From assembly GCA_964642305.1 (NCBI GenBank), contig CAZXOE010000001.1, forward strand, positions 58,917 through 122,916: a stretch of DNA of 64,000 nt, given 5' to 3'. Source of the DNA: an uncultured Candidatus Saccharibacteria bacterium. GTDB taxonomy: Bacteria; Patescibacteriota; Minisyncoccia; Phycocordibacterales; UBA1550. The position numbers were made by a program, and so were the translations under genes. Every line of letters starts with the position of its first letter. The stretch's first letter is position 1. Positions 7,791-44,834 of the stretch are shown one piece after another. The notes below the pieces were generated by a model. The model was not told the origin of the DNA. It did no database searches and saw nothing but the letters and a program-made list of their open reading frames with translations.

Positions 7791-7793
7791 TTG

Positions 7794-19616: not shown

Positions 19617-19675
19617 TATAAATCTCACCCAATAATAAGGTAGCGACCGCTACCTTATTATTGGGTGAGATTTAT
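19617..19675. repeat. family-1 long palindrome, copy a (ATAAATCTCACCCAATAATAAGGTAGCG acc CGCTACCTTATTATTGGGTGAGATTTAT)
   Basis: Perfect 28-bp arms. Second copy at 20319..20367. The two copies bracket the PaaX-like gene at 19720..20304. Confidence 0.8.
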
Positions 19676-19719: not shown

Positions 19720-20304
19720 CTACTTAAGCTCAAAATATTTCCTTACCCATTTGTCATTTTCTATAGAATCCGCGATTATGTACAAAATCTCCTTCCCTAT
19801 TTTATAGTCTGCCTTAATAAGCGTTATAATCTCCTCACAGTTATATGGGAATACCCACACGCTGTTTTGTAACTTAAGGAAGCCTATTTGCTGAAGTTTT
19901 TTTCTAAATTTCTCGCGAGTTCCTTTCCTTTTTTCGCGAATATCAAATATTATTATTCGCCATTTTCCATCCCACTTCCTAGGTTTAATAGACTTAAATT
20001 CATTTCGCTCAATAAGCCTGAGTGTTCGCTCGCCACCCTCGGTTAATCTCAAAAAAACACCTTTTTCTGTTTCCTTCCACGCAACCAGTCCTTTGTCGCG
20101 TAATCTCTTGATTGCATTATTTACTGCGTATCTTCTATTTTCACTATCTTTTTTATTTGGATCAATATGCCTCAATACAGAGAGAACGTTAGGCATTGCC
20201 AATGCGATGCTGATCACTCCTACAGTATACAGAGAAGTCAATACAGCCCTCTGAATTTTTGAGTTACGCATCCTCTTTTTCAGTTTTTCCTCAGCTGTAT
20301 GCAT
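19720..20304 (-). CDS. PaaX-family-like transcriptional regulator paralog (wHTH + Cas2-like C-terminal region)
   Basis: N-terminal hydrophobic stretch (VLTSLYTVGVISIALAM) then wHTH-like segment (AIKRLRDKGLVAWKETEKGVFLRLTEGGERTL). C-terminal WDGKWRIIIFDI...LQNSVWVFP resembles the PaaX C-terminus and the Cas2 core. Paralog at 35152..35703. Confidence 0.55.
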   Translation of the reverse strand: MHTAEEKLKKRMRNSKIQRAVLTSLYTVGVISIALAMPNVLSVLRHIDPNKKDSENRRYAVNNAIKRLRDKGLVAWKETEKGVFLRLTEGGERTLRLIERNEFKSIKPRKWDGKWRIIIFDIREKRKGTREKFRKKLQQIGFLKLQNSVWVFPYNCEEIITLIKADYKIGKEILYIIADSIENDKWVRKYFELK

Positions 20305-20428: not shown

Positions 20429-20974
20429 TTAGTTGGTGACTTCGCTCCACGCGGAACCGGTGATTTCACCGTCAGAGTTCAATGTAACGACAACCTGCAA
20501 TGTTCGCTTATTGGCATTCATTATTCCTTTTGATGTTATGGTCTTTGAGGTAGCGTCGCCAGTCACCTGCACCTTTGCGCAATCTTTAGACAGGGTGCAT
20601 CCATTCGTACTGAAATCAACTGAATAACAATCGGTAGTCGCGCAAAGATATGTTTTATTGCGAGCGATTTTAATAAGCGCGTCTCGAGCGCCGGACTCTG
20701 CGTAAAAATGCGCACGTGACGACTGCGCGCTTCCCTGTGAAATAAAAAGCTCGGTAAAAGAAAGCGTGGTGATGCTCACGGCAACCACTAGCGCCATCAC
20801 ACCAAGAAGCATGACTGTTGGGAGAGTTGCGACACCGCGGGAGCGCAAAGCACTACAACTGACCACTGACAGCAGACCACTGACAGCAGATTTTCGCTTC
20901 GCGAAAATCTGCTGGTTTGTTTGAGTAGTCGCGTAAGTTGTAAGTTGTAAGTTGTAAGTTGTCATTTGTTTCAT
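20429..20974 (-). CDS. pseudopilin-like protein (prepilin-type N-terminus lacking Glu5)
   Basis: ALRSRG|VATLPTVMLLGVMALVVAVSITT resembles a class-III signal with minor-pilin features. Start is ambiguous: ATG at 20974, or in-frame GTG/TTG giving leaders MVSCSALRSRG / MRSRG. The 5' end carries 4x GTAAGTT heptamers and the palindrome at 20884..20914. Confidence 0.55.
   Translation of the reverse strand: MKQMTTYNLQLTTYATTQTNQQIFAKRKSAVSGLLSVVSCSALRSRGVATLPTVMLLGVMALVVAVSITTLSFTELFISQGSAQSSRAHFYAESGARDALIKIARNKTYLCATTDCYSVDFSTNGCTLSKDCAKVQVTGDATSKTITSKGIMNANKRTLQVVVTLNSDGEITGSAWSEVTN
20884..20914 (-). promoter_or_regulatory. 31-nt hairpin CAGCAGATTTTCGC gaa GCGAAAATCTGCTG flanked by inverted ACAACT(G/T)AC heptamer arms, in the 5' region of the pseudopilin gene
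   Basis: Same palindrome occurs at 43253..43279 upstream of pilM, in the same orientation relative to the gene. Arms: 20851..20883 and 20933..20960 (4 perfect GTAAGTT units). Confidence 0.5.
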
Positions 20975-20976
20975 CT

Positions 20977-21555
20977 CTACCTAAGCGTTACTGTCGTGCG
21001 AAGCGAATCTTCGTATGTCCAATCGCTACTCTCTGCATTGTATCTCATTGTCATCAGTACCTGAACCGCTGTAGTAGTGGCAAGAAGCACTGAGTTGTAG
21101 TTTTCAATACGTGTAAACGTTGGCACATCCACTGTAACATAGCTTCCAGTAACAGCATCCGGCGCGCCGGCATTAACCTTTCGACGCAGAGTCCCGTCCA
21201 ACATATCGTAAAAAATAGTATCCCCTGACACAGTGAGCGACAGCGTGCTACCTGGAGCGCCAAGCGTGGGCGCAGAAATAGCTGTGGCATTCTTTACATC
21301 CTGCTTGATGAGCTCGCCTGCAAAGCGAATCGCGGAGTTTATCTCGCTCCGCGCTTCTGACTGCCCGCGTCCCTTTGAAAGCATTATAAACGCGTCAGAA
21401 ACAATCACCATAAGACCGGACAAGAGAGCAATGTAAATCAGAAGCTCCAGGAGAGAGATACCGCGAGTACGCGAACAACTTACAACTGACAACTTACAAC
21501 TTACAACTGACCCAAAAATACTATTCGATGCTTTTGTTAAATATTTTCTATTCAT
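20977..21555 (-). CDS. prepilin-type N-terminal cleavage/methylation domain protein (pseudopilin)
   Basis: RTRG|ISLLELLIYIALLSGLMVIV is a class-III signal peptide with Glu5. The track start at 21561 is a TTG; the ATG is at 21555 (MNRKYL...). An in-frame TTG gives the shorter leader MSVVSCSRTRG. Five GT(A/C)AGTT heptamers lie within the leader-coding region. Confidence 0.75.
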   Translation of the reverse strand: MNRKYLTKASNSIFGSVVSCKLSVVSCSRTRGISLLELLIYIALLSGLMVIVSDAFIMLSKGRGQSEARSEINSAIRFAGELIKQDVKNATAISAPTLGAPGSTLSLTVSGDTIFYDMLDGTLRRKVNAGAPDAVTGSYVTVDVPTFTRIENYNSVLLATTTAVQVLMTMRYNAESSDWTYEDSLRTTVTLR

Positions 21556-21632
21556 AGTCAATTATCACTCTTGTTCTTATTGTATCTTGTATTCTGTTAG
21601 TTGTCAGTTGTTTGTCGTTAGTTGTTCTCCCA

Positions 21633-22925
21633 CTACGGCGCCCAGTTTACCACCACATCCTCTACTGTTGGCGTATATGTTCCGGCGTCTGTACAGTTAT
21701 TTGAGCAAATGCGAATCTTGTAGCGGAAGTATCGTTTATTGTTCCATGCAGACCGGCATAGCTCAGCGTCTGTAGCTAATAATCCCACAAGCTCAACAGG
21801 GGTGCCAGGAGTAGGCGCATCAAACCAGTCTCCCGACGCGCATGTTGCGCCTCCAATATATGTCCATGGCCCCCCTGCACTATCAGAAGCAGAGAACTGA
21901 AAACCAACCTTCCCCTCATTTGAGCCAGGTCCACCGAGTGTTCCCTTCCACATTACCGAGTTGTACCCTGCCCCATCGGCGCTTCCTGTTGAGTCAAAAA
22001 CTGCTGAAGTAAGTATGCCGAAAGCAGGCATACCTCCACACGCTGGCGGTTTGTACCTGTGCGTCTCAGTCATTTTGATTCCAAGTCCATAGATCGTCAC
22101 ACCTGAAGGGTTGAAGTTGAGAGTGTATGAATATGTTCCAGCAGAGATTGGTGCGATTTTCCCGCTCGTGTCTTTATAGTCCAATTCAAACGGAGTCGGT
22201 GTGGCTCCGACATTGGGTAACGTAAATGTTTTTGATGTCCCTGCATCAGCATCAATCATAAATGTAATACTTCCGGTTCCCGTGTAAACGCCTGACGCAG
22301 TGAAATGAAGTGATTTCACTGGATTTGGAACACCGGTTAGATTGTCACCAATGTAGAGATTGAATAGGTATGACTGGTTTGTAGAGACTATCACGTTAGA
22401 ATTTGCCACAAGAGTTTCGGTGGTTTTTATTTTTTCATTTGATGGAGAGCCGTCTGCGCATGCCGGAGGTACATACCGATGCGACTCTGTCATCCTTACG
22501 CCCAATCCATAAATTGTTACCCCTGAAGGGTTGAAGTTGAGAGTGTATGAATATGTTCCAGCAGAGATTGGTGCGATTTTCCCGCTCGTGTCTTTATAGT
22601 CCAATTCAAACGGAGTCGGTGTGGCTCCGACATTGGGTAACGTAAATGTTTTTGATGTCCCTGCATCAGCATCAATCATAAATGTAATACTTCCGGTTCC
22701 CGTGTAAACGCCTGACGCAGTGAAATGAAGTGATTTCACTGGATTTGGAACACCGGTTAGATTGTCACCAATGTAGAGATTGAATAGGTATGACTGGTTT
22801 GTAGAGACTGCGGTATCGGAGCTACCAATAATACTTTCTGTGGTTTTAACCTGATCAGCGGCAAAAGCCGCGTAGCTAATGAGACCAAAACCAAGTATTG
22901 AAAAAAGTATATGAAAAATCTTCAT
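21633..22925 (-). CDS. secreted protein with two tandem 140-aa repeat domains
   Basis: Signal peptide MKIFHILFSILGFGLISYAAFA. Protein segments ...STNQSYLFNLYIGDNLTGVPNPVKSLHFTASGVYTGTGSITFMIDADAG... occur twice. DNA 22103..22389 is identical to 22523..22809. Confidence 0.7.
   Translation of the reverse strand: MKIFHILFSILGFGLISYAAFAADQVKTTESIIGSSDTAVSTNQSYLFNLYIGDNLTGVPNPVKSLHFTASGVYTGTGSITFMIDADAGTSKTFTLPNVGATPTPFELDYKDTSGKIAPISAGTYSYTLNFNPSGVTIYGLGVRMTESHRYVPPACADGSPSNEKIKTTETLVANSNVIVSTNQSYLFNLYIGDNLTGVPNPVKSLHFTASGVYTGTGSITFMIDADAGTSKTFTLPNVGATPTPFELDYKDTSGKIAPISAGTYSYTLNFNPSGVTIYGLGIKMTETHRYKPPACGGMPAFGILTSAVFDSTGSADGAGYNSVMWKGTLGGPGSNEGKVGFQFSASDSAGGPWTYIGGATCASGDWFDAPTPGTPVELVGLLATDAELCRSAWNNKRYFRYKIRICSNNCTDAGTYTPTVEDVVVNWAP
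22103..22809. repeat. intragenic tandem direct repeat, period 420 bp, 287 bp identical in both copies
   Basis: Lines beginning 22101 and 22521 are identical through ...ggtttgtagagact, and weaker similarity extends ~60 bp further 5'. Confidence 0.85.
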
Positions 22926-22934
22926 AAAATATGA

Positions 22935-23594
22935 TTAGCGGACGGGAACAGACACCGTTCCGTTTGAACTGGTAATCACGTACCCCCACCTCTTGCCGTC
23001 TTCATTGTAGGCAAAGCTAAGTCCGGAGATTGTTGATTTACTAAACTGGGGAAGATTCTGGATGGACCTGATGGCCTCTACGCCATCGTACCAATCGGAA
23101 GGCAACTCATAACCATACGATTGTATATCTACTGTTCCCTTCTCTACAACAGCTCCATTTGTAATATATACTGAGTATCCTTGATTCATCTCCTTTGACC
23201 CAAACACGACAACCCAACCACTTGATGTCCCGTCAACAGTAACTGTTCCAAGTGATTTTATATAAACAAGCTTCACGTCCTCAGACCAGGTTTTTGCAAT
23301 ATTCTCAGCAAATAAATATGCCTCCTTTGGGGTAGTCCCTCCCGCAATAACTACATGCTCCCTGCTAACGAGTTCAATTGGCTCACCGGTACTACCAGCG
23401 TATTTGCCATCTAGAGCCGAGGTCGAATCCATAATGTGAACAGTTGGAGTTTCGGTGATTATTCTCTCTCCACTAAAAACAGCTGTTCGTACTTTGTTGT
23501 AACCGCCATAATACACAACAGCACCGGCACAAATAGCGAGGAGAAGCGCGACAGCAAAAATAAAGACCTTTTTGTTTTGTAATATTTCTTTCAT
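22935..23594 (-). CDS. N-terminally membrane-anchored hypothetical protein
   Basis: TM helix VFIFAVALLLAICAGAVVYY followed by a ~190-aa soluble domain. Operonic: 1-nt gap to the giant gene and 9-nt gap to the downstream gene. Confidence 0.6.
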   Translation of the reverse strand: MKEILQNKKVFIFAVALLLAICAGAVVYYGGYNKVRTAVFSGERIITETPTVHIMDSTSALDGKYAGSTGEPIELVSREHVVIAGGTTPKEAYLFAENIAKTWSEDVKLVYIKSLGTVTVDGTSSGWVVVFGSKEMNQGYSVYITNGAVVEKGTVDIQSYGYELPSDWYDGVEAIRSIQNLPQFSKSTISGLSFAYNEDGKRWGYVITSSNGTVSVPVR

Positions 23595-23595
23595 A

Positions 23596-26500
23596 TTATG
23601 GTGTATAGGAATAGGTATTCAATATCTTCGATGACAAAACATACATACTCACACCGCTTGGAGTAACAACAATGTTATTACAAAGAGGCGGCGTACCAGG
23701 AACTACTGCTCCAGAACAAGGAGCTTCGTCGTTTAAATTTAAATTTGTCTCCGTACCAGGCGAAGGAATTTGATAGAGGAAACGATAAAACGTTGGGTTT
23801 GTCGCGCTCACATCATACGCGCGCGATAGAGCGCCGTTTGCTTTTACTGTGACCGTACCAACACCTCCTGAAACAACACCAAATACTTCAATGTATGCAT
23901 TTTGTATCGTTGGAGCGGTCTCGGGGATACTTACTGTGAAGTAGTATGTTGTCGCACCTGAAACAAGCCCTGTTGCTCCATTTATGTAAGACTTGGTTGT
24001 TTTTGCGGGCTTAGTGACAGCTTGAGTCAAAAAATTATATGTCGTGCTAATCGTTTCATTCCCCGCCGTGTCCATAGAACGCACACGATAATAATACGTA
24101 GTACCAGAACCTAGATTTGAAAGTGGCACACTATGGCTATTTACCATAGGCGAAGTATCAGTGAGAGCTGTACACTCGCTAGTCCCTGCACAGTTGTACC
24201 CACCACTAAATGCCTCTGTGGTGTTGTATTCAACTCGCGACGAACCGAGCTCGCTTGCGGTACTCCATGTGATTGTCGCACTGTTGCTTCCTGGGCTTCC
24301 TGACGACACGAGGGTTACAGCAGGCGGAGTTGTATCAATTTTGAAATCTGTTGCAGTTTCAGGGTTCACGTCATCAAACGAAATCCACGGACCATAGTAA
24401 TCAACTGCAGTCTTGTTAAATCTTATACGCGCTTGCCAATGGTACACATCATCTGACGGAGAGATCGCAATTGAACAATTATTTGCAGGATTGCTACAAT
24501 CTGTTGGGCCGGGAGCGGCGCCTGCGCTCAACCCTTCTACCGCAGACCCGCATGCCGTTTGAGCAACACAGGTAAAGGCTGTACCGATCGGCTTGTATTC
24601 AATTTGCGGATACATCGTTCCACCAGTGATACCAGTATTGGCTACCGTCATAGTGAGATAAATTGGAGTTGAGCTTGCAGAACCACCGATTGAAATAGCG
24701 TTCGTAAGCCCTGCATTTGTAAATTGATTTAGGTTCGTAGGCGCATTTGGAACATTAGAAATAACCACAAAATTTTTATCATTGGAGGTGAGTGCATTTG
24801 AAGTCACGAACACGTTACCCGTTGAAGCACCTACGGGGACAGCAGTGACGATTGCTGTTGCGGACCAGCTCGTAAAAACTGTCGCATCCACACCAGACAT
24901 AAATGTTACTTTGTTACTAGCGCTAAATGAAGCGGGGCAGCTCACGCCCTGACAGAAGTGGTTGCCGTTTACGGTCACTGGGTTACCTTCTGCTTCACTC
25001 GCAGGAGTAAACCCTGTAATACGCGGAAGAATCCTTAGAGTATTTATGTATGTATATGTTTTACTATTTGTGCCGGTCCCTTGTGTCATTGAAATACTCC
25101 CAGTATTCACAGAGTCTACAATAGTCGTTGGCACTTGAACTTCAATCGCAGTGTTTGTCCACGAGTTTACTGATCCAGTTTGCGCGACAATTGTTACCGA
25201 CCCAGATCCTTGAGAAGACCCAAAGCGTGTTCCGTTCAAAGTTATTACACCATCGGTATCTCCTGCATCGTACTCACGCGCTGTGTCTTGAGAAAAACCG
25301 ACCGGCTGTGTTACTGATGTGATCTGTGGATATATATAGAAGTTTTTTCCCGTAGAACCCGCTCCGGCTGCGGTAACAACCAGCGCACTCGCTCCACCAA
25401 AATTAACACCCCAATCAGTATCCGTATCCCCCGCTATCGCAGAGTCTGTTAAAAAAGTAATAGATGTTGGTGTCCATGCAGTAACATTTGCATCTGCTAT
25501 TTGATGTGTGCCGATTTTAATATTGTTCGTCGCAGTAGACCTGTTCCCCGCTGTCACTGTACCAAAACCAACACCAGTGATCGTAATGGACTGCCTAAAA
25601 CCTGCTCCATTGCCAATACGCGCGCCACACGTTGTGCAAGCGGCAGAATAATCAAGCGCTGGTTCTGTAGTGTTTGTATACGTAGTTACGCTTATAAGTA
25701 GTATTGGTGTAAATGTTCCTATAAGAACTCCCACATCATAATTCCCCCTTGTGTCTCTTTGGAAAACTTTGTATGTATATGCCTGACCGTTTGTAAGCGC
25801 TGTTGTCGTACACCCAACGCTTCCTCCAGTACCGTCAATCTTAGTTTCAGCTGTTGATACTGCGCTCGAGATCACGCAAGCAACTGTTGCTGTACCAATC
25901 GTGTTCCCTGCGACATATGCGCTATTCCCCTCTACTGGAACCTCTGCACCTGCAGATGCGCTTGTCCACCTAAGGACTACCGAGCCATTCGTCGTATCAA
26001 AATCAGCGCTACTTGAAGTGGTCCAATTTAAAGTATTTGCGGTGTCTTCCGGAGAACCACTGACTGAAGTTCCTCCATTAGGGGACAGGTTGTCTACGGT
26101 TACTGTGGCACTACTTGAATCAGTGCCTCCCTGTGTATTCGTGCTTGTAAAAGCAGTAACTGTTCCTGTAGTTGCATACTGAGCGCCAGGCGGAACCGCC
26201 ATATTTGCGTGAGTCTTTGGCGTAATACGCACCTTGTATGTAGTCACGCCTGTTGTAACAGGAATCCCGCCATTTGAAGTACAGGTGTTAAAAACTATTG
26301 TATTGCTTGCAGGATTTGTTACCGCAGTACACCGAGCAAGGTTTGCGTTGTCGGTGATATCAACCTGCGCAATGTTGTTGAAAGCTCCAGCAGGCCCGAG
26401 CGTAACGGTAACAGCCGTGACTGTATCTGTGCCTTCTGTTGTTGTGAGAGTAAATGCGTCTAAATCAGTAATTGGACCACTTGGTGCAATTATCGTATTA

Positions 26501-28314
26501 CCTGGATTTGTTCCATTTCCTATGTTGGTTGTCGCTGCCCCATAGCGCCAGGAAACTTGCTCCACCGCCGCCATTACGTTGCTTCCTGTTGAACCGAGAT
26601 TTATAGTGTAAGCGCCGTTGCCGACAATTTCGTTTGCGAGATTTTTATCAAAGAATAGCAACCACTGATACTCGCCCGTGGAGTTCCAGTTATATGTATT
26701 TGGAGGGGTTGGATCAACAGAAATAGAAGCAACCCTGTCCAATGTCACACCATTTACTGAATTTGCCCATGTGTATGACCGATAGCTTCCAGACACAGGA
26801 CTACCTGCTATGTTGATGTTCACAACAGGCGTCCCTGTTGTTCCGTATGCAGTTTGCTGTTCAGCCCAAAATGTTGCGGCGCCGGATTGTATAGGTGAAG
26901 TTTTCGGGAATGAATACGTAATAACTGCTTGTGCTGCGCGTGAGGACATTGTTCCGGTAAATGTAGCAGAAATAACATTGTCGCCTTGTACCATAGAACC
27001 AAGGTCATTTATATCATCAGACAATACCCAGAAATTGTTCATCACCTCGGTTGAAGCAGTATACGCATAATTTGTAACAGGAGTAGGGAGTGAGATTCCT
27101 TGCTGTGCGGCAAGCCCAAATGTGCCATTTAACGCGGCGTGACCTGTGCCACGCAAATACACATTTTTGATAGAAATAGTATTTTCTGGAAGTGTAATAG
27201 TGTCTAAAACATCCAGAGGTGTAGCTGAAGCCTTATTCCCATCAGAACCCAACATAATTTCAGATGTCTGCATTAGAAGCGTTGAGGCTGAGTAGTTGAA
27301 TTTATATGTAAGCACCTGCTCTGCCGAGACAAGGTTCATCTGATATCCTGCGGTAGCGGCAACCTTCAGATTGTGCGTAGCGTTAAGCGAAATAGCGGTT
27401 TTCGGATGTAAAATATAAATCGCTTGACTATCGGTACTTCCTGCATTGTCTAAGTAATAATTGGATACAGCATCAGCATCATAGTTGACTGTGAAAGTGC
27501 TATCTACTGTGCCTGTAGCAGGAACATGCCCACGAATTTCCGACCATGCTGATACGACAACTGGTGTATTTTCCGTAACCGTCATTGTTGGACTGGTAAA
27601 TGTCACTCCTGTTGCACCTACTGCAACGTTGCCGGGAGCCTGCCCGATGCGATATTTAATCGTGGTAATTTGCGTAGGAGCAGTATCGTCATAGTCATAG
27701 GTAATGAACATTTTCGCATTTTCCATTTTTCTTGGAACACCTGCGACGTTTGCTCTAAAAGTAATGCTCTTTGTTCCAGCAGTTTGCATTGCAGCTTGCA
27801 TTGCTGCTGTAAAATCTGGCTTTACGCGAATCGTGTAGTTTTCTGTTGAGGACAAATAAGACGCTGAAGTAAATACTGTTTCTGAAAATCCTGAGGGGGT
27901 AAGACCGAGAGTGACTACGCCTGGCGCAGCAGTTGAGGCGCCTTGAAAGGTATAATCAATCCACGCGGATTTAATCATTGTCGGTGAAGTAATAGCGTCT
28001 GGAAGGTCTACAGTAAAGACGAAGTTCTTGTTCGCAGCGGCAGCAACCCCAGTGCCTGACGTTTGATCCTGCCCTACAAAAAATTCAATAGTTTTTGTTT
28101 TTGTTCCGGCTGCATGAGCAACCGGAACATTAAAAAATTGCGGGTACTTCAACGCAAGTTGTTTTGAAATGAATGTGTTCGTGGCTGGCAACACTGGCGA
28201 GAACGTGAATGCTAATATAAAAACAGAAACAACTACTCGCTTTAAAAAAGGAAGTATCTTAAAACACAAAACGCTTTTCAAAAAATTACTAAAATAAATG
28301 ATCATTTTAAACAA
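23596..28314 (-). CDS. giant (1572 aa) Thr/Ser/Gly-rich extracellular protein with Ig-like, IPT/TIG-like and Fn3-like domains; putative adhesin
   Basis: N-terminal signal/anchor (VVVSVFILAFTFSPVLPA). IPT-like segments (RITGFTPASEAEGNPVTVNGNHF..., ITITGVGFGTVTAGNRS...). Fn3-like segment (ATITWSTASELGSSRVEYNTTEAF...TTYYYRVRSMDTAGNE). Low-complexity T/S/G/N composition throughout. Confidence 0.8.
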   Translation of the reverse strand: MFKMIIYFSNFLKSVLCFKILPFLKRVVVSVFILAFTFSPVLPATNTFISKQLALKYPQFFNVPVAHAAGTKTKTIEFFVGQDQTSGTGVAAAANKNFVFTVDLPDAITSPTMIKSAWIDYTFQGASTAAPGVVTLGLTPSGFSETVFTSASYLSSTENYTIRVKPDFTAAMQAAMQTAGTKSITFRANVAGVPRKMENAKMFITYDYDDTAPTQITTIKYRIGQAPGNVAVGATGVTFTSPTMTVTENTPVVVSAWSEIRGHVPATGTVDSTFTVNYDADAVSNYYLDNAGSTDSQAIYILHPKTAISLNATHNLKVAATAGYQMNLVSAEQVLTYKFNYSASTLLMQTSEIMLGSDGNKASATPLDVLDTITLPENTISIKNVYLRGTGHAALNGTFGLAAQQGISLPTPVTNYAYTASTEVMNNFWVLSDDINDLGSMVQGDNVISATFTGTMSSRAAQAVITYSFPKTSPIQSGAATFWAEQQTAYGTTGTPVVNINIAGSPVSGSYRSYTWANSVNGVTLDRVASISVDPTPPNTYNWNSTGEYQWLLFFDKNLANEIVGNGAYTINLGSTGSNVMAAVEQVSWRYGAATTNIGNGTNPGNTIIAPSGPITDLDAFTLTTTEGTDTVTAVTVTLGPAGAFNNIAQVDITDNANLARCTAVTNPASNTIVFNTCTSNGGIPVTTGVTTYKVRITPKTHANMAVPPGAQYATTGTVTAFTSTNTQGGTDSSSATVTVDNLSPNGGTSVSGSPEDTANTLNWTTSSSADFDTTNGSVVLRWTSASAGAEVPVEGNSAYVAGNTIGTATVACVISSAVSTAETKIDGTGGSVGCTTTALTNGQAYTYKVFQRDTRGNYDVGVLIGTFTPILLISVTTYTNTTEPALDYSAACTTCGARIGNGAGFRQSITITGVGFGTVTAGNRSTATNNIKIGTHQIADANVTAWTPTSITFLTDSAIAGDTDTDWGVNFGGASALVVTAAGAGSTGKNFYIYPQITSVTQPVGFSQDTAREYDAGDTDGVITLNGTRFGSSQGSGSVTIVAQTGSVNSWTNTAIEVQVPTTIVDSVNTGSISMTQGTGTNSKTYTYINTLRILPRITGFTPASEAEGNPVTVNGNHFCQGVSCPASFSASNKVTFMSGVDATVFTSWSATAIVTAVPVGASTGNVFVTSNALTSNDKNFVVISNVPNAPTNLNQFTNAGLTNAISIGGSASSTPIYLTMTVANTGITGGTMYPQIEYKPIGTAFTCVAQTACGSAVEGLSAGAAPGPTDCSNPANNCSIAISPSDDVYHWQARIRFNKTAVDYYGPWISFDDVNPETATDFKIDTTPPAVTLVSSGSPGSNSATITWSTASELGSSRVEYNTTEAFSGGYNCAGTSECTALTDTSPMVNSHSVPLSNLGSGTTYYYRVRSMDTAGNETISTTYNFLTQAVTKPAKTTKSYINGATGLVSGATTYYFTVSIPETAPTIQNAYIEVFGVVSGGVGTVTVKANGALSRAYDVSATNPTFYRFLYQIPSPGTETNLNLNDEAPCSGAVVPGTPPLCNNIVVTPSGVSMYVLSSKILNTYSYTP

Positions 28315-30036: not shown

Positions 30037-30789
30037 TTATTGGAGTTTAATTGATCCACCTGTCGTATCTATCTCCGTGCCGATTGGGCCAATGGATTCA
30101 TCGCCGGTGCCTGTCCACGATGTTTGATTTGTGACTTTGTTCCTCCAGCGAATGAAGTAGTCGCTAATTGTCACGGGGCTTCCCGACCCCTGCCACGATA
30201 CAGTAACAGTAACTTTTTGTGTGGATGGATCAAACGCGCCAGTGCTTGTTGTGCAGGTGGTTGCTGTACCGTCTGTGTCGGTAATACCAGTAACATTTCT
30301 CACGCCTGCCGTTGTGTCGCGACAAATATTTTGGACTACAATATACCTCGTAAAACTTCCAGTATTGAGGGCGATGAGCTCGCTTCCTGTGGATGTCGCC
30401 CACTTGGTGCCAGACTGAGTAAAGTGATACTGCGAACCCTTTGTAAGATCATAAATATTTTGCCACTTTTCGTCCGCTACAGAGCGCGACTGCTCTAGCG
30501 CCTCACCAGCAAGACCCATAGCAGTATCGCTCTCGCCTGAAACCTTTCCGCTTTGCATACTCACAAACACCGACTGCGCGCCGATGGAAAGTATAACCGC
30601 GAGGATTGATGTTACAATAAGAAGCTCCAGAAGTAGCGCTCCTTTTTGGGAGGAATGTGGAAACTTATAAGAAGCCTCCAGTTGTTTGCCATATTTGTCA
30701 TAATATTTTTTGAATGATGGATTTTTTAATTTATTCTCCAAATATTTCTGAAAATCAAATGTATACTTCTTTTTATTTATTTCCTCCAT
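30037..30789 (-). CDS. pilin-like protein with unusually long (50 aa) leader before a prepilin-type helix
   Basis: SSQKG|ALLLELLIVTSILAVILSIGA. ATG at 30789 verified (ATGGAGGAA). No in-frame alternative start lies closer to the cleavage motif. Confidence 0.6.
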   Translation of the reverse strand: MEEINKKKYTFDFQKYLENKLKNPSFKKYYDKYGKQLEASYKFPHSSQKGALLLELLIVTSILAVILSIGAQSVFVSMQSGKVSGESDTAMGLAGEALEQSRSVADEKWQNIYDLTKGSQYHFTQSGTKWATSTGSELIALNTGSFTRYIVVQNICRDTTAGVRNVTGITDTDGTATTCTTSTGAFDPSTQKVTVTVSWQGSGSPVTISDYFIRWRNKVTNQTSWTGTGDESIGPIGTEIDTTGGSIKLQ

Positions 30790-30852: not shown

Positions 30853-30893
30853 AAGTCCCCCGTAGGGTTCCGTACCTATGGGGTCCTTTTTTT
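30853..30893. terminator. hairpin GUCCCCCGUAGG-loop-CCUAUGGGGUCC followed by T7 on plus (A-run/UUUU on minus); terminator at the 3' end of the NYN gene region
   Basis: 12-bp stem with one mismatch and one GU pair, then ttttttt at 30887..30893. On the minus strand the stem is followed by UUUUCG. Confidence 0.45.
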
Positions 30894-31381: not shown

Positions 31382-31828
31382 CTAGTATATCGTTCCGATA
31401 GCTGAAACAGTCGTTGTTGCTGTTGTGTCCTCTAGAGTAACGCTCGTTGTGGTTGCTGTGGGTATTGTGCCGGTGATTTTGTTGAAAATTATTTCCTTGT
31501 ACCCCGATGCTGGGTCAGAAAATGTGACACCAGATGAAAGTGTGGTTGTGGCAGTGGTTGTGGAGTTTGTACCGTCTGTTGAGAATGTAATGTAATAGTC
31601 CCCTTGAGCGTCCTTCACAAAGCGTACGCCCCATTTGTATCCGCTCTCCCCTGCCATTGACTTTGCGCGCATCTGTCGCAAGTCGCTCGCAATTATTTTT
31701 GAAGTAGACTGAAGCTCCACATTTTTTGCAAACCCTCTATAAAACCCTGCTCCAATGGCAGCAAGAATTGCCATAATCGCGATTACAATTAGCAGTTCCA
31801 GAAGCGAAAATCCGCGAGAATTTTTCAT
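31382..31828 (-). CDS. type IV pilin / pseudopilin (prepilin-type N-terminal methylation domain)
   Basis: MKNSRG|FSLLELLIVIAIMAILAAIGA is a classic class-III signal with Glu5. Thr-rich C-terminus. Confidence 0.8.
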   Translation of the reverse strand: MKNSRGFSLLELLIVIAIMAILAAIGAGFYRGFAKNVELQSTSKIIASDLRQMRAKSMAGESGYKWGVRFVKDAQGDYYITFSTDGTNSTTTATTTLSSGVTFSDPASGYKEIIFNKITGTIPTATTTSVTLEDTTATTTVSAIGTIY

Positions 31829-31830
31829 AC

Positions 31831-33048
31831 TTATGTGAAGTGCCCAACAAGCTGATAAATTGGCAAAATGATTGAGAATGCAATAGAACCAACAAGGAGC
31901 CCCATTATCAATAGCAATATTGGCTCTAGCACAGCAGTGAGGCCCTTGAGTTTGTTGTCAACATCCTCTTCGTAGAAATCTGAAAATGTAATGAGAATTT
32001 CAGAAAGGCTTCCTGTGCGTTCACCCACAATAACAAGGCTCACGAGAAGTCTAGGAAAGAGCTCTGGAAATTTTGCGATCGCGTCCGAAATCGAGAGTCC
32101 GTTTTTCACATTATCAACAATCGCCTTGATTGCTATTTCATATTTTTGATTACCAATAGACTGGGCTGCGGATTCTAGCGAACCCACAGCAGAAAGCCCA
32201 CTCGCCATCAGATTGCCCAATGTGCGCGTAAAACGCACGAGCGCAACTTTTTTTATTAGCTCGTTCGCGACAGGGATATGAGATATGAGAAAGAAAAAGA
32301 ATTTCTTACCCATATTTGTTTTTCTGAAGTATAGGAAAAACCAAACTGTGAAAAAAAGAATTATGCCGTCCAAAATAAAACTATATGTGAGCATTCCCGA
32401 CAGCCCGAGAAAGAACTTTGTTACCCATGGAAGTTCCACTCCGCTGGACGCAAAAGCTTTAGTAAGACGCGGGAGCACAAAGATGAGCAAGAGCGACACA
32501 ACACCAATAGATGCGACGAGAAGGATTATCGGGTATGTAAGCGCGCTCTTTACCTTTGCGCGAAGAGCGTACTCTTTTGAAAGATACTGCCCGAGCTCTG
32601 TGAGCGTGCGTTCAAGCTGGCCAGAAGCCTCGCCCGCGCGAAGCATACCCAGAAATACTGGTGGAAATTGATTTGCAAAGTTCGCAAATCCAGCAGAAAG
32701 CGGTTGCCCGTTTTTTACCAATGCCTGCACCTCCCTCAAGATATTTTTCATCATCTTTTTTTCTGTGTCTGCAATCAGAATATCCAGAGCCTCCACCACA
32801 GAGAGCCCTGCCTTTACAGTCGCCGAGAGATTGCGTACCAAAAACAAAATATCAACAGAAGTAACTTTTTCAAAAAGTGAAATAGATAAATCTAAACCTC
32901 TCTTGCCTCCGCGAAGCGCCTCGACAGAAATAGGGGTTAGGTCGCGCCTAAGCAAATACTGCACAACCTCCTCGCGTGTTAGAGCTTCGTACTCGCCTCG
33001 TACTATTGCCCCGTCTTTATTGTAAACTTCGTAAATAAATATGCTCAT
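31831..33048 (-). CDS. pilC: type IV pilus assembly platform protein PilC (T2SS F family)
   Basis: Two GspF-type repeats, 3 TM helices, 405 aa; adjacent to pilB. Confidence 0.9.
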   Translation of the reverse strand: MSIFIYEVYNKDGAIVRGEYEALTREEVVQYLLRRDLTPISVEALRGGKRGLDLSISLFEKVTSVDILFLVRNLSATVKAGLSVVEALDILIADTEKKMMKNILREVQALVKNGQPLSAGFANFANQFPPVFLGMLRAGEASGQLERTLTELGQYLSKEYALRAKVKSALTYPIILLVASIGVVSLLLIFVLPRLTKAFASSGVELPWVTKFFLGLSGMLTYSFILDGIILFFTVWFFLYFRKTNMGKKFFFFLISHIPVANELIKKVALVRFTRTLGNLMASGLSAVGSLESAAQSIGNQKYEIAIKAIVDNVKNGLSISDAIAKFPELFPRLLVSLVIVGERTGSLSEILITFSDFYEEDVDNKLKGLTAVLEPILLLIMGLLVGSIAFSIILPIYQLVGHFT

Positions 33049-33265: not shown

Positions 33266-34984
33266 TTATTCGTTGACTACTCTAAGTATCTCCTCTATTG
33301 TTGTTACTCCGCGTTCCACCTTATCCAAACCATCTTCAAACATAGTTGTCATTCCATCATCTACCGCTTTTTTTCGTATCTCCCCTACGGTTGCCTCTCG
33401 GAGTATTAGCTCACGAATGGCATCAGTAACTCTGAACAATTCAAAAATACCAATCTGCCCCTGAAACCCAGAATTTCCGCACACCTTGCAACCGCGTCCG
33501 CGATAGAGAGTGTTTGGAATTGCTGAATCCTTGTTTCCAGAAAGCGCCATCTGCGCCTTAATAATACGCACAATCTCTGGGCTAGCAGGATAAGACTCTG
33601 TGCACGAGGAGCAAATGCGACGCACAAGACGCTGAGCGATTACAATATTTACAGTAGAGGAAAGCAAAAATGCCGGCGCGCCCATATCTAGAAGTCTTGG
33701 TAATGCAGAGGTTGCGTCGTTGGTGTGAAGAGACGACAATACAAGGTGCCCCGTAAGCGCGGCGTGGATAGCTATCTCAACCGTTTCATTGTCGCGAATT
33801 TCCCCTATCATAATAATGTCAGGGTTTTGACGAAGTAACGCGCGAAGGCCATTTGCAAATGTAATTCCGGCCTTTGGATTTACTTGAGTTTGATTAACGC
33901 GAGGAAATTCATATTCAACAGGATCCTCAATGGTAGTGATGTTAACAGATGGAGTATTAAGTATTTGAAGTATTGCATAAAGCGATGTTGTCTTGCCGTG
34001 ACCTGTGGGGCCAGTAACAAGGATCATTCCATGGGGTTTTTTAATTTCATTTTGAAGTATCGCTATGCCATCGTTTGAAACTCCAAGATCCTTGAGGGTA
34101 AGCGGGCGCGCGGCTCCTTTCAAAATACGCATTTCAACTTTTTCTCCATGAAAGACAGGCATTATATTTACACGCACATCTACAGAACCGCCATCTTCCA
34201 TATCAAAACGAAAACGACCATCTTGAGGAACGCGATGCTCGTCTATTTGCATTCCAGCGAGGATTTTCACGCGCGCGACAAGCACAGGGGCGATAGTTTG
34301 CGGCAAGCTAACGATCTCCTGCATAATTCCGTCAATGCGATAACGCACAAGGAGTTCCTTGTCCAGAGGTTCAAAATGAATATCAGACGAGTTTAGAGAA
34401 ACTGCGTGATCAATAACATTGTCTAGTATACTAACGATTGGCACTGCGGCAGCGAGCTTTGCGACATCTGCATCTCCACTAACCGCGAGTGACTGCTCTA
34501 CGTTTTCGGAAATAATTTGATCAAAATTGATGCCTACTTTTTTCTTATACTGCTTGAGGCCATATCGCAAACTTGGAACCGTTGTAATGTATACGTCTAC
34601 CCATACATTTAGTTTTGCGCGCACGTATTCAATAGTTTCGTAATCAAATGGGTCAAGCATTGCAAGCTTTGCGCGACCTTGCTTTTTGTCGTAATCAAAC
34701 AAAACTACATTTTTTGCTTTAGCATACGCTTCTGGAATGAGCGCAAGCACGTCTGGGTTGATGGTTTCCGAACCCTCTTTTTTAAGATTAATTATTGGCG
34801 TGCCATAATACGGACTCAAAAGCTCTGCAAAATAATCCTCGGGAATTTTCCCTCTTCCTATTAAAATATTTTGGATAGACTGCCCAGAACGACGAGACTC
34901 TTCCACAGCAACACCAAAATCCTCATCAGTCACAAGTCCCGACTCAATTACAATCTCTTTTAATTTCTCTTTTGCGATGTGCAT
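33266..34984 (-). CDS. pilB: type IV pilus assembly ATPase PilB (GspE family)
   Basis: Walker A LVTGPTGHGKTT, Asp box, His box, C-terminal tetracysteine (CSSC...CKVC); N-terminal GspII_E-like domain. Confidence 0.9.
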   Translation of the reverse strand: MHIAKEKLKEIVIESGLVTDEDFGVAVEESRRSGQSIQNILIGRGKIPEDYFAELLSPYYGTPIINLKKEGSETINPDVLALIPEAYAKAKNVVLFDYDKKQGRAKLAMLDPFDYETIEYVRAKLNVWVDVYITTVPSLRYGLKQYKKKVGINFDQIISENVEQSLAVSGDADVAKLAAAVPIVSILDNVIDHAVSLNSSDIHFEPLDKELLVRYRIDGIMQEIVSLPQTIAPVLVARVKILAGMQIDEHRVPQDGRFRFDMEDGGSVDVRVNIMPVFHGEKVEMRILKGAARPLTLKDLGVSNDGIAILQNEIKKPHGMILVTGPTGHGKTTSLYAILQILNTPSVNITTIEDPVEYEFPRVNQTQVNPKAGITFANGLRALLRQNPDIIMIGEIRDNETVEIAIHAALTGHLVLSSLHTNDATSALPRLLDMGAPAFLLSSTVNIVIAQRLVRRICSSCTESYPASPEIVRIIKAQMALSGNKDSAIPNTLYRGRGCKVCGNSGFQGQIGIFELFRVTDAIRELILREATVGEIRKKAVDDGMTTMFEDGLDKVERGVTTIEEILRVVNE

Positions 34985-35083: not shown

Positions 35084-35123
35084 CACAGCTATCCCCATTT
35101 TCTACCTATAGGTAGAAAATGGG
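35084..35123. repeat. family-2 palindrome copy 1 (CTATCCCCATTTTCTACC tata GGTAGAAAATGGGGATAG)
   Basis: Perfect 18-bp arms. Further copies at 35733..35772 and 38113..38154. Copies 1 and 2 bracket the PaaX-like paralog. Confidence 0.8.
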
Positions 35124-35151
35124 GATAGTGAACGGCATACTATACGCTCAA

Positions 35152-38218: not shown

Positions 38219-38944
38219 CTAGAAGTTTGTTGTAGTTGGTAGAAGGTTTAGACTATTTCCTGTCTCATAGTAGCTATCATTGTCGCCACCATCTTTTGCC
38301 ATTTTTAGCTCGTCAGTTTTGTATGCCTGACTTTCAAGAACTGCATTTATTTCAAAAATATATGACGGCTTTCCTGCTGCTGAAGAACCATTTTGGCAGG
38401 CATAACGATAAACTAAATCATCCAAGTCCGTTGCGGACAGCGTCCCAATGGCATTAGTTGGATCTATTGGAAAACTTGAAATTGGTGTTCCACCTGTTAA
38501 TGCTTTTAGGTTTACAGGAATCCAACCAGTACCATCAACCTTTCCAGCGGTTGAAGAGATGGATCCTGGGCTAGTAAAAGTAGACCCTGTAATTGCATCC
38601 CCACCTGTGGTAGCTGGAGTTGGCGGTGTCGCCCATGTTGGCGCAGACGCACTACTGTACGCGATTTTTCCAGCTCTAGCAACACCGTCAGCTGCAGTAA
38701 GGCACAGTGTCCCGAAGTTATCCAAACTTGGTGTTGAGGACGCTGTGAGCATGATGCCGAGGGCTGTCTTAACAGACTTAAGGTCGGAGATGCGTTGCGC
38801 GTCGCGAGCTTTTTTCAAAGTTTCTGCGGGGTTTAGCATGAACACGAGCGCGATTGAGAGAATAGCGATGATTGCGATAACGATGAGGAGCTCAAGCAAT
38901 GTGAACCCTCCTTCGCGCTTTTTCATATTTGTAAATGAAATCAT
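38219..38944 (-). CDS. type IV pilin (major-pilin-like)
   Basis: MKKREGG|FTLLELLIVIAIIAILSIALVFM. The track start at 38944 is probably too far upstream; the short leader is the likely one. Ala/Thr/Gly-rich globular part. Confidence 0.8.
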   Translation of the reverse strand: MISFTNMKKREGGFTLLELLIVIAIIAILSIALVFMLNPAETLKKARDAQRISDLKSVKTALGIMLTASSTPSLDNFGTLCLTAADGVARAGKIAYSSASAPTWATPPTPATTGGDAITGSTFTSPGSISSTAGKVDGTGWIPVNLKALTGGTPISSFPIDPTNAIGTLSATDLDDLVYRYACQNGSSAAGKPSYIFEINAVLESQAYKTDELKMAKDGGDNDSYYETGNSLNLLPTTTNF

Positions 38945-38967
38945 AATGATAATGTTAGTTAATAATG

Positions 38968-39666
38968 CTAGAAGTCAGTTCCAGTGCCAAGAATCTTCAA
39001 ATTAGTACCAATCTCATAAAGATTTGAGTTGTTTCCGCCATCTTTTGTAAGCTTGTTATCAGTTCCAGTAGTGTATGTGGTACTTTCTAGGACTGCATTA
39101 ATTTCGAATGCAAGTGGTGTGATAGAGCATGCGTAACGGTAGACATAATCTCCATTATCTACTGCATCGAGGGCTCCAATTGTGTTTACAGGGTCAACAG
39201 GAAGATTTGAAATTGGTGAACCACCGATAAGTGAATCAAAGTTTACGGGGACCCAGCCTGTTCCGTCTGTGAGAGTGTAATATGTCGATGAAGTTGTTGA
39301 TGCTACAGTGGCTCCAGTGGCACCATCAAGATTTGCATCCGTAATAGCACTAGTGACAGAGTAAAATATTTTTGGTGCAAGAGAACCATCCCACGCAGCT
39401 GCAGGGGTTAACTTACAACCATTATTATTGGTAAGTCCTCCAATATACGGCGTTGTTGTGCTCGTTGTATACAACGCAATTGCAGTCTTCATTGTGCTTA
39501 AGTCTGACATACGCTGAGAATCGCGAGACTTTTTCAATGTTTCTGCAGGGTCCAAAACAAGCACAAGAGCTACTGACAAAATTGCGATAATGGAAACCAC
39601 GATGAGGAGCTCAAGGAGAGTGAACCCTGCCTCACGCTTCTCTTTTATATTCATATTCAAATTCAT
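38968..39666 (-). CDS. type IV pilin (major-pilin-like)
   Basis: MNLNMNIKEKREAG|FTLLELLIVVSIIAILSVALVLV. The ORF-track extension to 39840 runs through a repeat element and is rejected. ATG at 39666 (or 39654). Confidence 0.8.
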   Translation of the reverse strand: MNLNMNIKEKREAGFTLLELLIVVSIIAILSVALVLVLDPAETLKKSRDSQRMSDLSTMKTAIALYTTSTTTPYIGGLTNNNGCKLTPAAAWDGSLAPKIFYSVTSAITDANLDGATGATVASTTSSTYYTLTDGTGWVPVNFDSLIGGSPISNLPVDPVNTIGALDAVDNGDYVYRYACSITPLAFEINAVLESTTYTTGTDNKLTKDGGNNSNLYEIGTNLKILGTGTDF

Positions 39667-39752
39667 ATTTATAATTATTAAATTGTTATGGTAATAGTAT
39701 AGCAAACTATATTTAAATAGCACAATGGGGTGTGGATAACTTTTGGGGTGCC

Positions 39753-39829
39753 TGTCATTGCGAGCGGAGCGTGGCAATCCAGAGCAAGCGTGGCGAACTC
39801 CTGGATTGCTTCGTGCCTCGCAAAGACGG
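39753..39829. repeat. imperfect-palindromic MITE/REP-like element, copy B
   Basis: tgtcattgcgagcggagcgtggcaatccag...ctggattgcttcgtgcctcgcaaagacggtg. Shares tcattg(t/c)gag, gcaa(c/t)ccag, ctggattgcttc and ctcgcaaagac with copy A. Confidence 0.6.
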
Positions 39830-39883
39830 TGCGGGCCCATAAATGCACGACCTTGGGCTCAGGATGCGGGCCCATTCAATATT

Positions 39884-43143: not shown

Positions 43144-43252
43144 GGCGTTTAATAAATGATGTACTGTTAACAACTATTGTAGCATGCAAAGAATTATCTT
43201 GGTATACTATTTGAGTACAAACATGTGACATTTAACCATTGACATGTGACTC

Positions 43253-43279
43253 GCAGATTTTCGCGAAGCGAAAATCTGC
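43253..43279 (+). promoter_or_regulatory. hairpin GCAGATTTTCGC gaa GCGAAAATCTGC with flanking inverted TGACA(A/T)TT repeat arms, upstream of pilM
   Basis: Same palindrome as 20884..20914. Arms at 43220..43250 (ACATGTGACATTTAACCATTGACATGTGAC) and 43280..43311 (TGTCAATTGTCAAATGTTAATTGTCAATTGTC). A related arm sequence also occurs at 7717..7749. Confidence 0.5.
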
Positions 43280-43319
43280 TGTCAATTGTCAAATGTTAAT
43301 TGTCAATTGTCCCAAATCA

Positions 43320-44834
43320 ATGAACCTATTAAGCCTACTTACAAAAGAAAAGCGCGTAGCTGGAATTGAGATCAGCGACTCTGTTGTTCGTGTTGCTTTT
43401 TTAAATACAAATCTTAAGAAGAAAAACCAAGTTACCATAAAACCAAAGGATGATAATATGGGGAATGAAAATACTAGTGTTTCATCAGAAAATAATGAGG
43501 ATTACGAACTTATTCTTATTGAGGAGCCTATTGCATCAAATATAATTGCCGATGGTGTGGTAATTGACATTGATCTTCTTGCAAACACACTAAAGAAAAT
43601 ATGGGAAAAGGCAAACCTTGGCACAGACTATGCTATTGTTGCAATCCCTGACGACAAAATATACTCAAGAATTTTTTCATTTCCAAAGTCAGTCACAGAT
43701 GAGCGCTTAAACGAGGCGATGCGTCTCGCTATCAGTTTTCAAATACCTATAAAAATTGAAGACGCGTATCTAGACTGGGAACGCACAAAGGGAACAAATA
43801 CTACAAATGAGATCTTGCTCTCAACGATTCCACGCAAAGTCGCAGAGGGTTATGTGCAAGCGCTTGAGAGAGCCGGTATTAAAACACTCGCTCTTGAAAG
43901 TCATCTAGCGGGGATCTCTCGTTCCGTAAAGCTTGAAGACGGTGTTACAACTATTTTTCTAAAAAAGACCCCTGACGGAGCGACAATCTTTGCCATCAGA
44001 GAGGGTGTCTTGCATTTTTCACGGACGCTCCCTCTTAGTTTTGTTCCTGAAGCAAATCTTCACAATGAAATTCAAAAAGTTAAAGATGCGATTGCGTCTG
44101 AAACAAAAGGAGAGATTAACGAGATAGAGCTTCTGAATGCAACAGTGTGTGACGAATATGCAAATCGCATGGAAATTTCAGAGCCAAAGTCAAAATGGCT
44201 TATTGCTCTTGGGTCAGCTATGCGCGGGAGAATCCCTGAAGGCAATGATAACCTGATCTCACTTTTGCCAGTTGGAACAGAAGAAGCATATTCGTACCAG
44301 CGCGCGACAACATTTATTGTGCTAATGAGAAACCTTATAATTAGCATTTCTATATTTTTTGTGTCTGTGTACACAATAGCGTATGTATCAATGCTATCAA
44401 TGTTGCAAAAGGGAGCCGAGCAAGTAACAACGCTGTCGGCAGGAGCCGTGCCACCAGAATTGGCTGAGAAAGAAAAACTGATAAAGGATGTGAACGCGAT
44501 TACTGAAACAGGAGCAATATTCCTATCAGAGATGCCGATATGGAGCGCTGTGTTAACAGAACTCGTAGCGAGAACACCAGATGGAATCACAATCTCCGCA
44601 TTTTCAGCGCCCAATTTTACAGATAGGTTCTCTTTGGTCGGTAATGCACGGAGCAGGACAACGCTTAATAATTACAAAAAAACGTTGCAAGAATCAGAGA
44701 TGCTTTCTGACATTGAGCTCCCTTTAACAAATCTTGATAAAGAAGAGAATATACCATTCAGCATATCGTTTCGCTTGAAGGATCCTAGTACGCTATACTA
44801 TACTCAAGCGACTGAGAGAACTACAAATATATGA
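43320..44834 (+). CDS. pilM: type IV pilus assembly protein PilM fused to PilN-like C-terminal domain
   Basis: Actin-like ATPase N-term (VAGIEISDSVVRVAFL...), central TM (IVLMRNLIISISIFFVSVYTIAYV), PilN-like periplasmic tail. The track start at 43239 is a TTG inside the repeat element; the ATG at 43320 is preferred and 43293 is possible. Confidence 0.7.
   Translation: MNLLSLLTKEKRVAGIEISDSVVRVAFLNTNLKKKNQVTIKPKDDNMGNENTSVSSENNEDYELILIEEPIASNIIADGVVIDIDLLANTLKKIWEKANLGTDYAIVAIPDDKIYSRIFSFPKSVTDERLNEAMRLAISFQIPIKIEDAYLDWERTKGTNTTNEILLSTIPRKVAEGYVQALERAGIKTLALESHLAGISRSVKLEDGVTTIFLKKTPDGATIFAIREGVLHFSRTLPLSFVPEANLHNEIQKVKDAIASETKGEINEIELLNATVCDEYANRMEISEPKSKWLIALGSAMRGRIPEGNDNLISLLPVGTEEAYSYQRATTFIVLMRNLIISISIFFVSVYTIAYVSMLSMLQKGAEQVTTLSAGAVPPELAEKEKLIKDVNAITETGAIFLSEMPIWSAVLTELVARTPDGITISAFSAPNFTDRFSLVGNARSRTTLNNYKKTLQESEMLSDIELPLTNLDKEENIPFSISFRLKDPSTLYYTQATERTTNI

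Follow-up and report, generated by a model that had tools for sequence, protein, structure and literature searches.

We analyzed a 64,000-nucleotide (nt) stretch of DNA from an uncultured Candidatus Saccharibacteria bacterium (contig CAZXOE010000001.1 of assembly GCA_964642305.1, positions 58,917 to 122,916; hereafter, the window) and found that a cluster of 5 minus-strand genes, encoding a giant secreted protein, a membrane-anchored protein, a secreted protein of 430 amino acids (aa) and 2 minor pilins, is half of a larger pilus locus. Comparison with about 70 related loci revealed a conserved gene order, homologies between domains of the large proteins, architectures that are fused in some loci and split in others, and a variable head on the giant. 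We consider it reasonably probable that the giant and the 430-aa protein are the 2 pieces of a pilus-borne adhesin, the giant being attached through the 430-aa protein, which would act as its adaptor. To our knowledge, host recognition and attachment by ultrasmall candidate phyla radiation (CPR) bacteria are largely unknown, with pili as the leading candidate, and we know of studies of such pili in a few cultivated Saccharibacteria only. We found no published description of the C-terminal domain family or of the split arrangement reported here.

A five-gene cluster within a larger pilus locus

A preliminary description of this DNA had proposed 5 closely spaced minus-strand genes running from 28314 down to 20429. 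All 5 open reading frames (ORFs) are there and co-directional, separated, from the giant to the PilX-like pilin, by gaps of 1, 9, 71 and 2 nt (77 instead of 71 nt between the 430-aa gene and pil3 if the latter starts at ATG 21555). The giant (23596..28314, 1572 aa from a TTG start) has a 100% public match, P0001, whose gene call begins at an ATG three codons in and yields 1569 aa. It is followed by tm219 (22935..23594), a 219-aa protein whose sole hydrophobic segment is N-terminal, in line with the membrane anchor ascribed to it earlier, and by the 430-aa protein (21633..22925), in which a signal-like N-terminus precedes the predicted duplication, 2 copies of ~136 aa at aa 25-160 and 165-300. 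We call these copies MOD1 (22446-22853) and MOD2 (22026-22433), and the conserved domain that follows them the C-terminal domain (CTD; aa 296-430, 21636..22040). The cluster closes with the minor pilin genes pil3 (20977..21561, 194 aa) and the PilX-like gene (20429..20974, 181 aa).

The contrast expected between these 2 prepilin-type proteins, one with Glu5 and the other without, is present. Pil3 has the processing site RTRG/ISLLELLIYIALLSGLMVIV, in which Gly34 is followed by Ile-Ser-Leu-Leu-Glu39 (Gly-1 and Glu5), and a hydrophobic helix encoded at ~21382-21462. Its match to Pfam N_methyl is sub-threshold (E = 0.007), and its family profile matches solved pilins in the PDB (E = 3.8e-4), with 3 to 16 of 20 family members matching ComGE, ComGF and GspJ models. 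The PilX-like protein has the site RSRG/VATLP, with Gly47 followed by Val-Ala-Thr-Leu-Pro52 (Gly-1, no Glu5), a conserved YAExGARDAL motif and a mature form of ~134 aa. An exhaustive phmmer search gathered its family in 218 representative clusters, mostly of 135-170 aa and a few with long C-terminal extensions. Gly-1 is invariant in 40 relatives, 10 of which match Pfam PilX_N (best E = 2.7e-5), and the family profile searched against PDB sequences gave nothing significant. In 3 of the compared loci, which we denote by L numbers, the PilX-like pilin carries a fused module, either Laminin_G_3 with DUF2341 or CHB_HEX_C (L038, 9896-11497; L044, 749-2395; L058, 4580-5920), and such lectin-type fusions fit a distal, ligand-facing position for the PilX-like class. 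A direct CTD-pilin fusion was also considered and rejected, the PilX-like proteins with long extensions containing no CTD. In L014 and L015 (9932-10417), a PilX-like gene 90% identical to that of the window lies beside the same ABC-transporter genes with no pil3, CTD or giant upstream of it, an arrangement that may reflect rearrangement or decay of the locus in a close relative.

The 5' parts of both pilin genes are unusually long and filled with repeats, which makes their true start codons uncertain. They contain tandem heptamers (ACAACTT/AAGTTGT) in opposite orientations at 20933-20962, 21475-21508 and 21595-21626, which recur in the window at 7722-7746, 7791-7809, 43221-43250 and 43280-43311. 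This motif occurs 11 times against 0.24 expected, is nearly absent from the loci of relatives, and pairs into long leader hairpins (dG -54.7 kcal/mol, z -4.75; dG -49.9 kcal/mol, z -3.4). The heptamers could mediate phase variation, form a structured leader or be a small inverted-repeat element.

Further minus-strand genes extend the locus upstream. The nearest pilin gene is pil2 (30037..30789, G-ALLLE), which directly precedes the giant in relatives, followed by pil1 (31382..31828, G-FSLLE; Pfam N_methyl, E = 1.2e-9; NCBIfam XpsH and GspH), a PilC-type platform protein (T2SSF, 31831..33048) and a PilB-type assembly ATPase (T2SSE, 33266..34984), the last 2 assigned by Pfam on the identical genes of L001. 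Beyond them lie 2 prepilin genes of 241 and 290 aa, candidate major pilins (38219..39840; N_methyl, E = 2e-8 and 2.5e-7), and, on the plus strand, a 531-aa PilM-PilN fusion of the assembly platform (43239..44834; PilM_2, E = 1.1e-13; PilN, E = 3.4e-6). The order pilB, pilC, pil1, pil2, giant, tm219, (430-aa gene), pil3, pilX is kept in L004 (GCA_030648955.1), in L008 and in the more distant L007, and in the syntenic relatives the start and stop codons of the locus abut or overlap. The locus thus carries 4 pilin-like genes, one of them without Glu5, in which pil1 resembles GspH/XpsH, pil3 resembles ComGE/ComGF/GspJ and pil2 carries no such assignment, and non-pilin genes interrupt the set. The proposal that the cluster is ordered like minor-pilin/PilY1 operons therefore stands as regards a minor-pilin module, but the unit is larger, with pil1, pil2, pilB and pilC upstream, and shows no homology to PilY1.

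Two genes inside this minor-pilin operon, glgA (glycogen synthase, 28466-29992) and an NYN-domain gene (30876-31379), alone separate the upstream pilus genes from the 5 genes, and are found in none of the 3 syntenic relatives examined. In L019, L021, L026 and L035 a gene of ~316 aa, of the Beta-lactamase2 type in L019, lies between pil2 and the giant.

The giant protein, its terminal module and the C-terminal domain

We surveyed metagenome contigs through the PilX-like pilin by pattern scanning, for which a narrower PilX-like alignment was used because the broad one was too divergent to yield scan patterns. This gave 67 loci, each with at most 10 kb of flanking sequence, which were annotated with hidden Markov models (HMMs) built from the window and its relatives; the counts that follow refer to 66 metagenome loci obtained in this way (PilX-like pilins at 35-91% identity). 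Of 56 testable loci, 51 have pil3 as the immediate upstream neighbor of the PilX-like gene, and in 36 of 38 testable loci a protein ending in the CTD immediately precedes pil3.

The CTD is a Cys-containing beta-sandwich of ~130 aa, which lies at the extreme C-terminus of proteins spanning ~290 to 2126 aa. Without exception, the 40 distinct CTD tails end in ...[ST]-P-x-V-x-x-[VI]-[VI]-V-[NS]-W-[SA]-P, immediately followed by the stop codon, with W-3 and P-12 invariant and P-1 present in 38. In the window these last 12 residues are PTVEDVVVNWAP (21636-21671). The payloads carried in front of the CTD by the large proteins include CARDB, five CHB_HEX_C/Fn3_assoc repeats, a Kelch propeller, and Laminin_G_3 with DUF2341. 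For the 430-aa protein itself, AlphaFold2 predicted 3 beta-sandwich domains (predicted local distance difference test, pLDDT, 86), and its end (...VVVNWAP) has neither a C-terminal hydrophobic segment nor, by Pfam, an SLH domain. Its homologues fill more than 220 clusters in Parcubacteria-type metagenome-assembled genomes, all annotated 'hypothetical', and the names they bear put the lineage within Parcubacteria, near Nomurabacteria. A search of the assembly index for exact copies of the 430-aa protein gave no match, and in each of 3 public assemblies of this genome (L001-L003) the sequence breaks off within its gene. The DNA of MOD1 and MOD2 is 100% identical over ~285 nt at a 420-bp period, and visibly diverged copies are seen in relatives (e.g., L008); to judge from the sequence, this points to recent gene conversion or re-duplication.

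The giant is rich in Thr (15.1%) and Ser (9.4%), with 2.5% Lys and 1.9% Arg, and begins with a hydrophobic, Sec-type signal-like segment that lacks a prepilin motif. Its Fn3 domain, already suspected, lies above the Pfam cutoff (Pur_ac_phosph_N/fn3 at aa 1334-1430, 24025-24315, E = 2.5e-10), but the TIG domains attributed to it are sub-threshold in the window (17.3 bits against a cutoff of 20.9) and far stronger in homologous giants (L026, E = 7.8e-9 and 35.9 bits for the whole protein; L035, E = 6e-8 and 33 bits). Sortase or S-layer anchoring, which the preliminary description had set against a link to pili, was looked for as well: the giant, which ends in ...KILNTYSYTP, has no C-terminal LPXTG, hydrophobic segment or membrane anchor in its sequence and no SLH domain in Pfam.

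From front to end, the giant comprises a head or N-array (aa 67-603, 26506..28116), a variable stalk segment (aa 604-870, 25705..26505), a conserved stalk with TIG-like repeats and FN3 (aa 871-1435, 24010..25704) and a terminal module that ends in ...TYSYTP and the stop codon (aa 1436-1572, 23599..24009). The head, which has no Pfam match, was modeled by AlphaFold2 as 4 packed, all-beta, jelly-roll-like sandwich modules in tandem (pLDDT 82.5; predicted TM-score 0.89). Foldseek searches of the head and 430-aa models against the PDB returned generic tandem jelly-roll matches only (single-chain C1q head, PNGase F, Cry protoxin domains, capsid jelly rolls, CBM tandems), with TM-scores of at most 0.29 under either normalisation and TMq of at most 0.21. 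The variable stalk segment is missing in P0002-P0004 and was found by BLASTP in the giants of L026 (47% identity) and L019.

The giant has homologues in the same slot of L004, L007, L008 and 11 metagenome loci, and orthologues of tm219 directly follow it in the same 3 loci and in 10 metagenome loci. A scan of GTDB representative genomes with the giant alignment yielded a single distant locus, L009 (Saccharibacteria). What is conserved is the rear of the protein. Giants of 8 other loci match its C-terminal ~700 residues, from the stalk through FN3 to the terminal module, at 33-62% identity, carry different N-terminal parts and all belong to pilus loci, with pil2 preceding wherever the upstream flank is visible; the giants of L019, L021, L026, L035 and L059, for example, share aa ~870-1572 with that of the window and have a different front. 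The stalk HMM matches giants in 17 loci.

The fused and split forms connect these parts. In L007 the giant (P0005) has the same head and stalk and ends in the CTD (E = 2e-51), and no separate 430-aa gene is present. The stalk is likewise part of the large CTD proteins of L061 and L071, which brings to 3 the loci in which it is fused directly to the CTD. Since the CTD in turn adjoins the pilin pair in 36 of 38 loci, these fusions speak for a physical link between the giant and the pilins. The giant of the window, by contrast with that of L007, ends in a module that aligns with MOD (hhalign probability 98.7%, E = 1.7e-16, 120 columns) and not with the CTD (0.1%). Counting with clean HMMs free of the CTD of P0005, we found that giants without a CTD end in MOD in 11 of 12 loci, adjoining a CTD protein with one or two MODs, and that none of the 9 CTD proteins of at least 839 aa carries MOD. 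MOD therefore occurs exactly where one polypeptide has become two, and the simplest reading is that MOD-MOD pairing would rejoin the pieces. A trimer of the C1q/TNF type, formed by the 2 MODs of the adaptor and that of the giant, was set aside because the adaptors of L004 and L026 have just one MOD. The earlier idea of the giant as a pilus-associated adhesin in a minor-pilin module is thus partly supported by its conserved place and by the CTD fusions, with the correction that the 430-aa protein, not the giant, is coupled tightest to the pilins.

Taken together, the 5 genes make up the distal end of a type IV pilus (T4P) locus in a CPR bacterium of the Parcubacteria type. By analogy with GspH-K and PilH-K, Pil1, Pil2, Pil3 and the PilX-like protein may form a complex that primes and caps the filament. 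The CTD of the 430-aa adaptor would dock on the Pil3/PilX-like pair and its 2 jelly-roll MODs would pair with the homologous C-terminal MOD of the giant, which could then project its Ig/FN3 stalk and four-jelly-roll head away from the presumed tip, where the head would bind a ligand on a host cell or surface. Tm219 is likely to retain the giant at the membrane, or to load it there, ahead of pilus extension. It has no Pfam match, its family profile gave nothing significant against PDB sequences, and an initial impression from the sequence that it contains 2 PepSY-like domains was dropped for want of a Pfam hit.

Relation to known tip adhesins and competing explanations

The final 10-12 residues of PilC/PilY1 anchor it at the pilus tip by adding a beta-strand to a PilK-class pilin at the PilJ-PilK interface, and MshQ, CpaL and GspK follow the same terminal-strand principle (PMC13533445; bioRxiv 10.64898/2026.09.18.752573). 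The PilC/PilY1 proteins of Neisseria, Pseudomonas and Myxococcus are large non-pilin proteins with Sec signals encoded among core minor pilins, and likewise the giant and the 430-aa protein combine a hydrophobic signal-like N-terminus, the lack of a G-xxxxE motif and a conserved adjacency to pilins. Both systems also share a variable N-terminal part, a conserved C-terminal part with a conserved terminal strand, and a partner pilin set that includes one member without Glu5. A conserved C-terminal end and a swappable front beside a Glu5-less pilin are the architecture of a PilC/PilY1-type tip adhesin; the domain itself is unrelated. The direct comparison with PilY1/PilC suggested in the preliminary description found no homologue, since the giant, tm219 and the 430-aa protein all lack the PF05567/IPR008707 beta-propeller in Pfam and NCBIfam and the 430-aa model consists of 3 beta-sandwiches. 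Unlike PilC/PilY1, moreover, the proteins described here have no vWA domain, the gene for the CTD protein lies upstream and not downstream of the Glu5-less pilin, a single protein is in this genome split into 2 polypeptides, and they occur in a CPR bacterium whose envelope presumably has a single membrane.

Other systems offer partial parallels. MshQ of the Vibrio cholerae MSHA pilus, likened here by its description, has ~1200 aa, is unrelated to PilY1, adjoins pilI/J/K homologues and has a predicted anchor at its extreme C-terminus (PMC13533445), but is a single polypeptide encoded downstream of the PilK homologue. CpaL/TadG of Tad pili is likewise a large component of the tip complex with a C-terminal strand needed for assembly (PMC13533445), and differs in that its own pilin-like domain, absent here, supplies the strand in cis. 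The T4P loci of the Saccharibacteria strain TM7x encode large PilX1 and PilX2, proposed as adhesins (PMC11623550), and large lectin-like or propeller-module proteins encoded in CPR and Gram-positive T4P loci have been proposed as tip adhesins (PMC11623550, PMC8179133). The PilX-like relatives fused to Laminin_G or CHB_HEX modules in L038, L044 and L058 resemble PilX1/PilX2 of TM7x (Nanosynbacter lyticus) and PilB of Streptococcus sanguinis. There, however, the binding module sits on a pilin, whereas neither the giant nor the 430-aa protein carries a pilin N-terminus, and the PilX-like pilin of the window is, unlike PilX1/PilX2, small.

We tentatively advance a broader proposal, which we hold to be possible but doubtful, that the CTD is a second, independently evolved and propeller-free anchor of tip adhesins, docking or adding a beta-strand on the Pil3/PilX-like pair and serving in Parcubacteria as a socket for lectin, Kelch, CARDB and jelly-roll heads; the split version would clip on through MOD-MOD contacts, and the heads would set the host range of the episymbiont. 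If the two-piece model is correct, the CTD and its terminal motif would provide a sequence marker with which to find pilus-borne adhesins in genomes across the Parcubacteria, the swappable heads would become candidate determinants of host specificity, and the terminal-strand anchoring of tip adhesins would extend to a non-homologous family that includes a two-polypeptide version.

Several observations weigh against the two-piece pilus-borne adhesin. The giant and the pil3 gene each have a promoter-like site in front of them (28354-28327 and 21607-21579, respectively), and the genes could accordingly be transcribed as more than one unit. Because unrelated genes (glgA and NYN here, a beta-lactamase-like gene in relatives) also sit inside the locus, adjacency alone is weak evidence. 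The PilX-like protein of the window reaches no Pfam threshold, and neither PilT nor a prepilin peptidase was found among the window genes scanned against Pfam. In the monomer model the last CTD strand is folded into its own domain (pLDDT ~83), unlike the disordered plug of PilC. The modeled folds are compatible with glycan or protein binding and identify no function. Finally, profile searches recovered the four-module head from Moraniibacteriota, Falkowbacteria and other contigs (proteins of 723-886 aa), as well as from a 2649-aa Saccharibacteria protein and from a protein where it stands behind a DUF916-like part, and the 6 such head loci examined have no pilin, CTD, stalk or tm219 gene within 10 kb.

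This last point is the chief argument for the explanation that best survives beside the pilus-borne adhesin, namely that the giant and tm219 form an autonomous cell-surface or envelope protein, kept on the wall or membrane independently of pili. In L010, L012 and L013 (~position 10001), on Moraniibacteriota-type contigs, stand-alone head proteins of 730-886 aa adjoin LysM/LytR_C proteins, a hint that the head family may act in association with the cell wall where it occurs outside pilus loci. Because the head is found in stand-alone proteins far from pilin genes, it appears to be a portable binding module borrowed by the pilus system and not specific to pili. An autonomous protein would also agree with the promoter-like site just upstream of the giant, with its lack of a pilin-like N-terminus and with the unrelated cargo in the locus. 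We nevertheless regard it as unlikely, given that the combination of stalk and MOD was found, in the data fetched, only within pilus loci, between pil2 and tm219/CTD/pil3/pilX, that the stalk is fused to the CTD in L007, L061 and L071, and that the presence of MOD is correlated between the giant and the CTD protein.

A second explanation would make the giant and the 430-aa protein substrates, not tip parts, pushed out by a short pseudopilus like that of type II secretion. The minor pilins do match GspH, GspJ and XpsH-type models, and both would-be substrates are Sec-type secreted proteins encoded within a pseudopilin operon. The invariant C-terminal end and the head-CTD fusions, however, are unexpected for mere substrates, and the locus has further prepilin genes and PilM-PilN, as in true pili. 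Pili have, in addition, been imaged on cultivated Saccharibacteria (PMC11623550). No secretin was found among the genes scanned against Pfam, and with these points together we judge a pseudopilus improbable. CPR bacteria are usually assumed to have a single-membrane envelope, which also counts against it. A competence pilus, with the large proteins as DNA receptors like ComZ of Thermus, which is encoded among minor pilin genes, would suit bacteria that depend on imported nucleotides and the ComGE and ComGF matches of the Pil3 family, but is very improbable for a giant so poor in Lys (2.5%) and Arg (1.9%), whose jelly-roll, Ig and FN3 build, like the lectin, Kelch, CARDB and chitobiase-type payloads of other loci, speaks for glycan or protein rather than DNA binding.

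Neighboring genes

The pilus genes are flanked by 2 PaaX_M/Cas2-like proteins (19720-20304 and 35152-35703) that measure 183-194 aa and share 30% identity, each gene being followed by a long perfect hairpin (19624-19669 and 35089-35128). The first, a 194-aa protein on the minus strand assigned by Pfam, recurs downstream of the pilin pair, its homologues coming after the PilX-like gene in L021, L022, L063, L026, L027 and L034, with one more present in L071. It may be a dedicated regulator.

Between pilB and the prepilin genes lies a plus-strand ORF of 293 aa (37105-37986), which corresponds to a gene for an rve-family integrase/transposase in L001. A PAS histidine kinase (40660-43173) separates the pilins from the PilM-PilN group, and ORFs matching 2 response-regulator genes of L004/L008 in position and size lie in the same interval. 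The PilM-PilN fusion is itself followed by a 201-aa ORF and a LytR_C-domain protein (43239-46063). Elsewhere in the window, a protein of 907 aa that combines Flg_new_2 (InlB B-repeat-like) domains with a dockerin (3306-6029) is a further probable surface protein.

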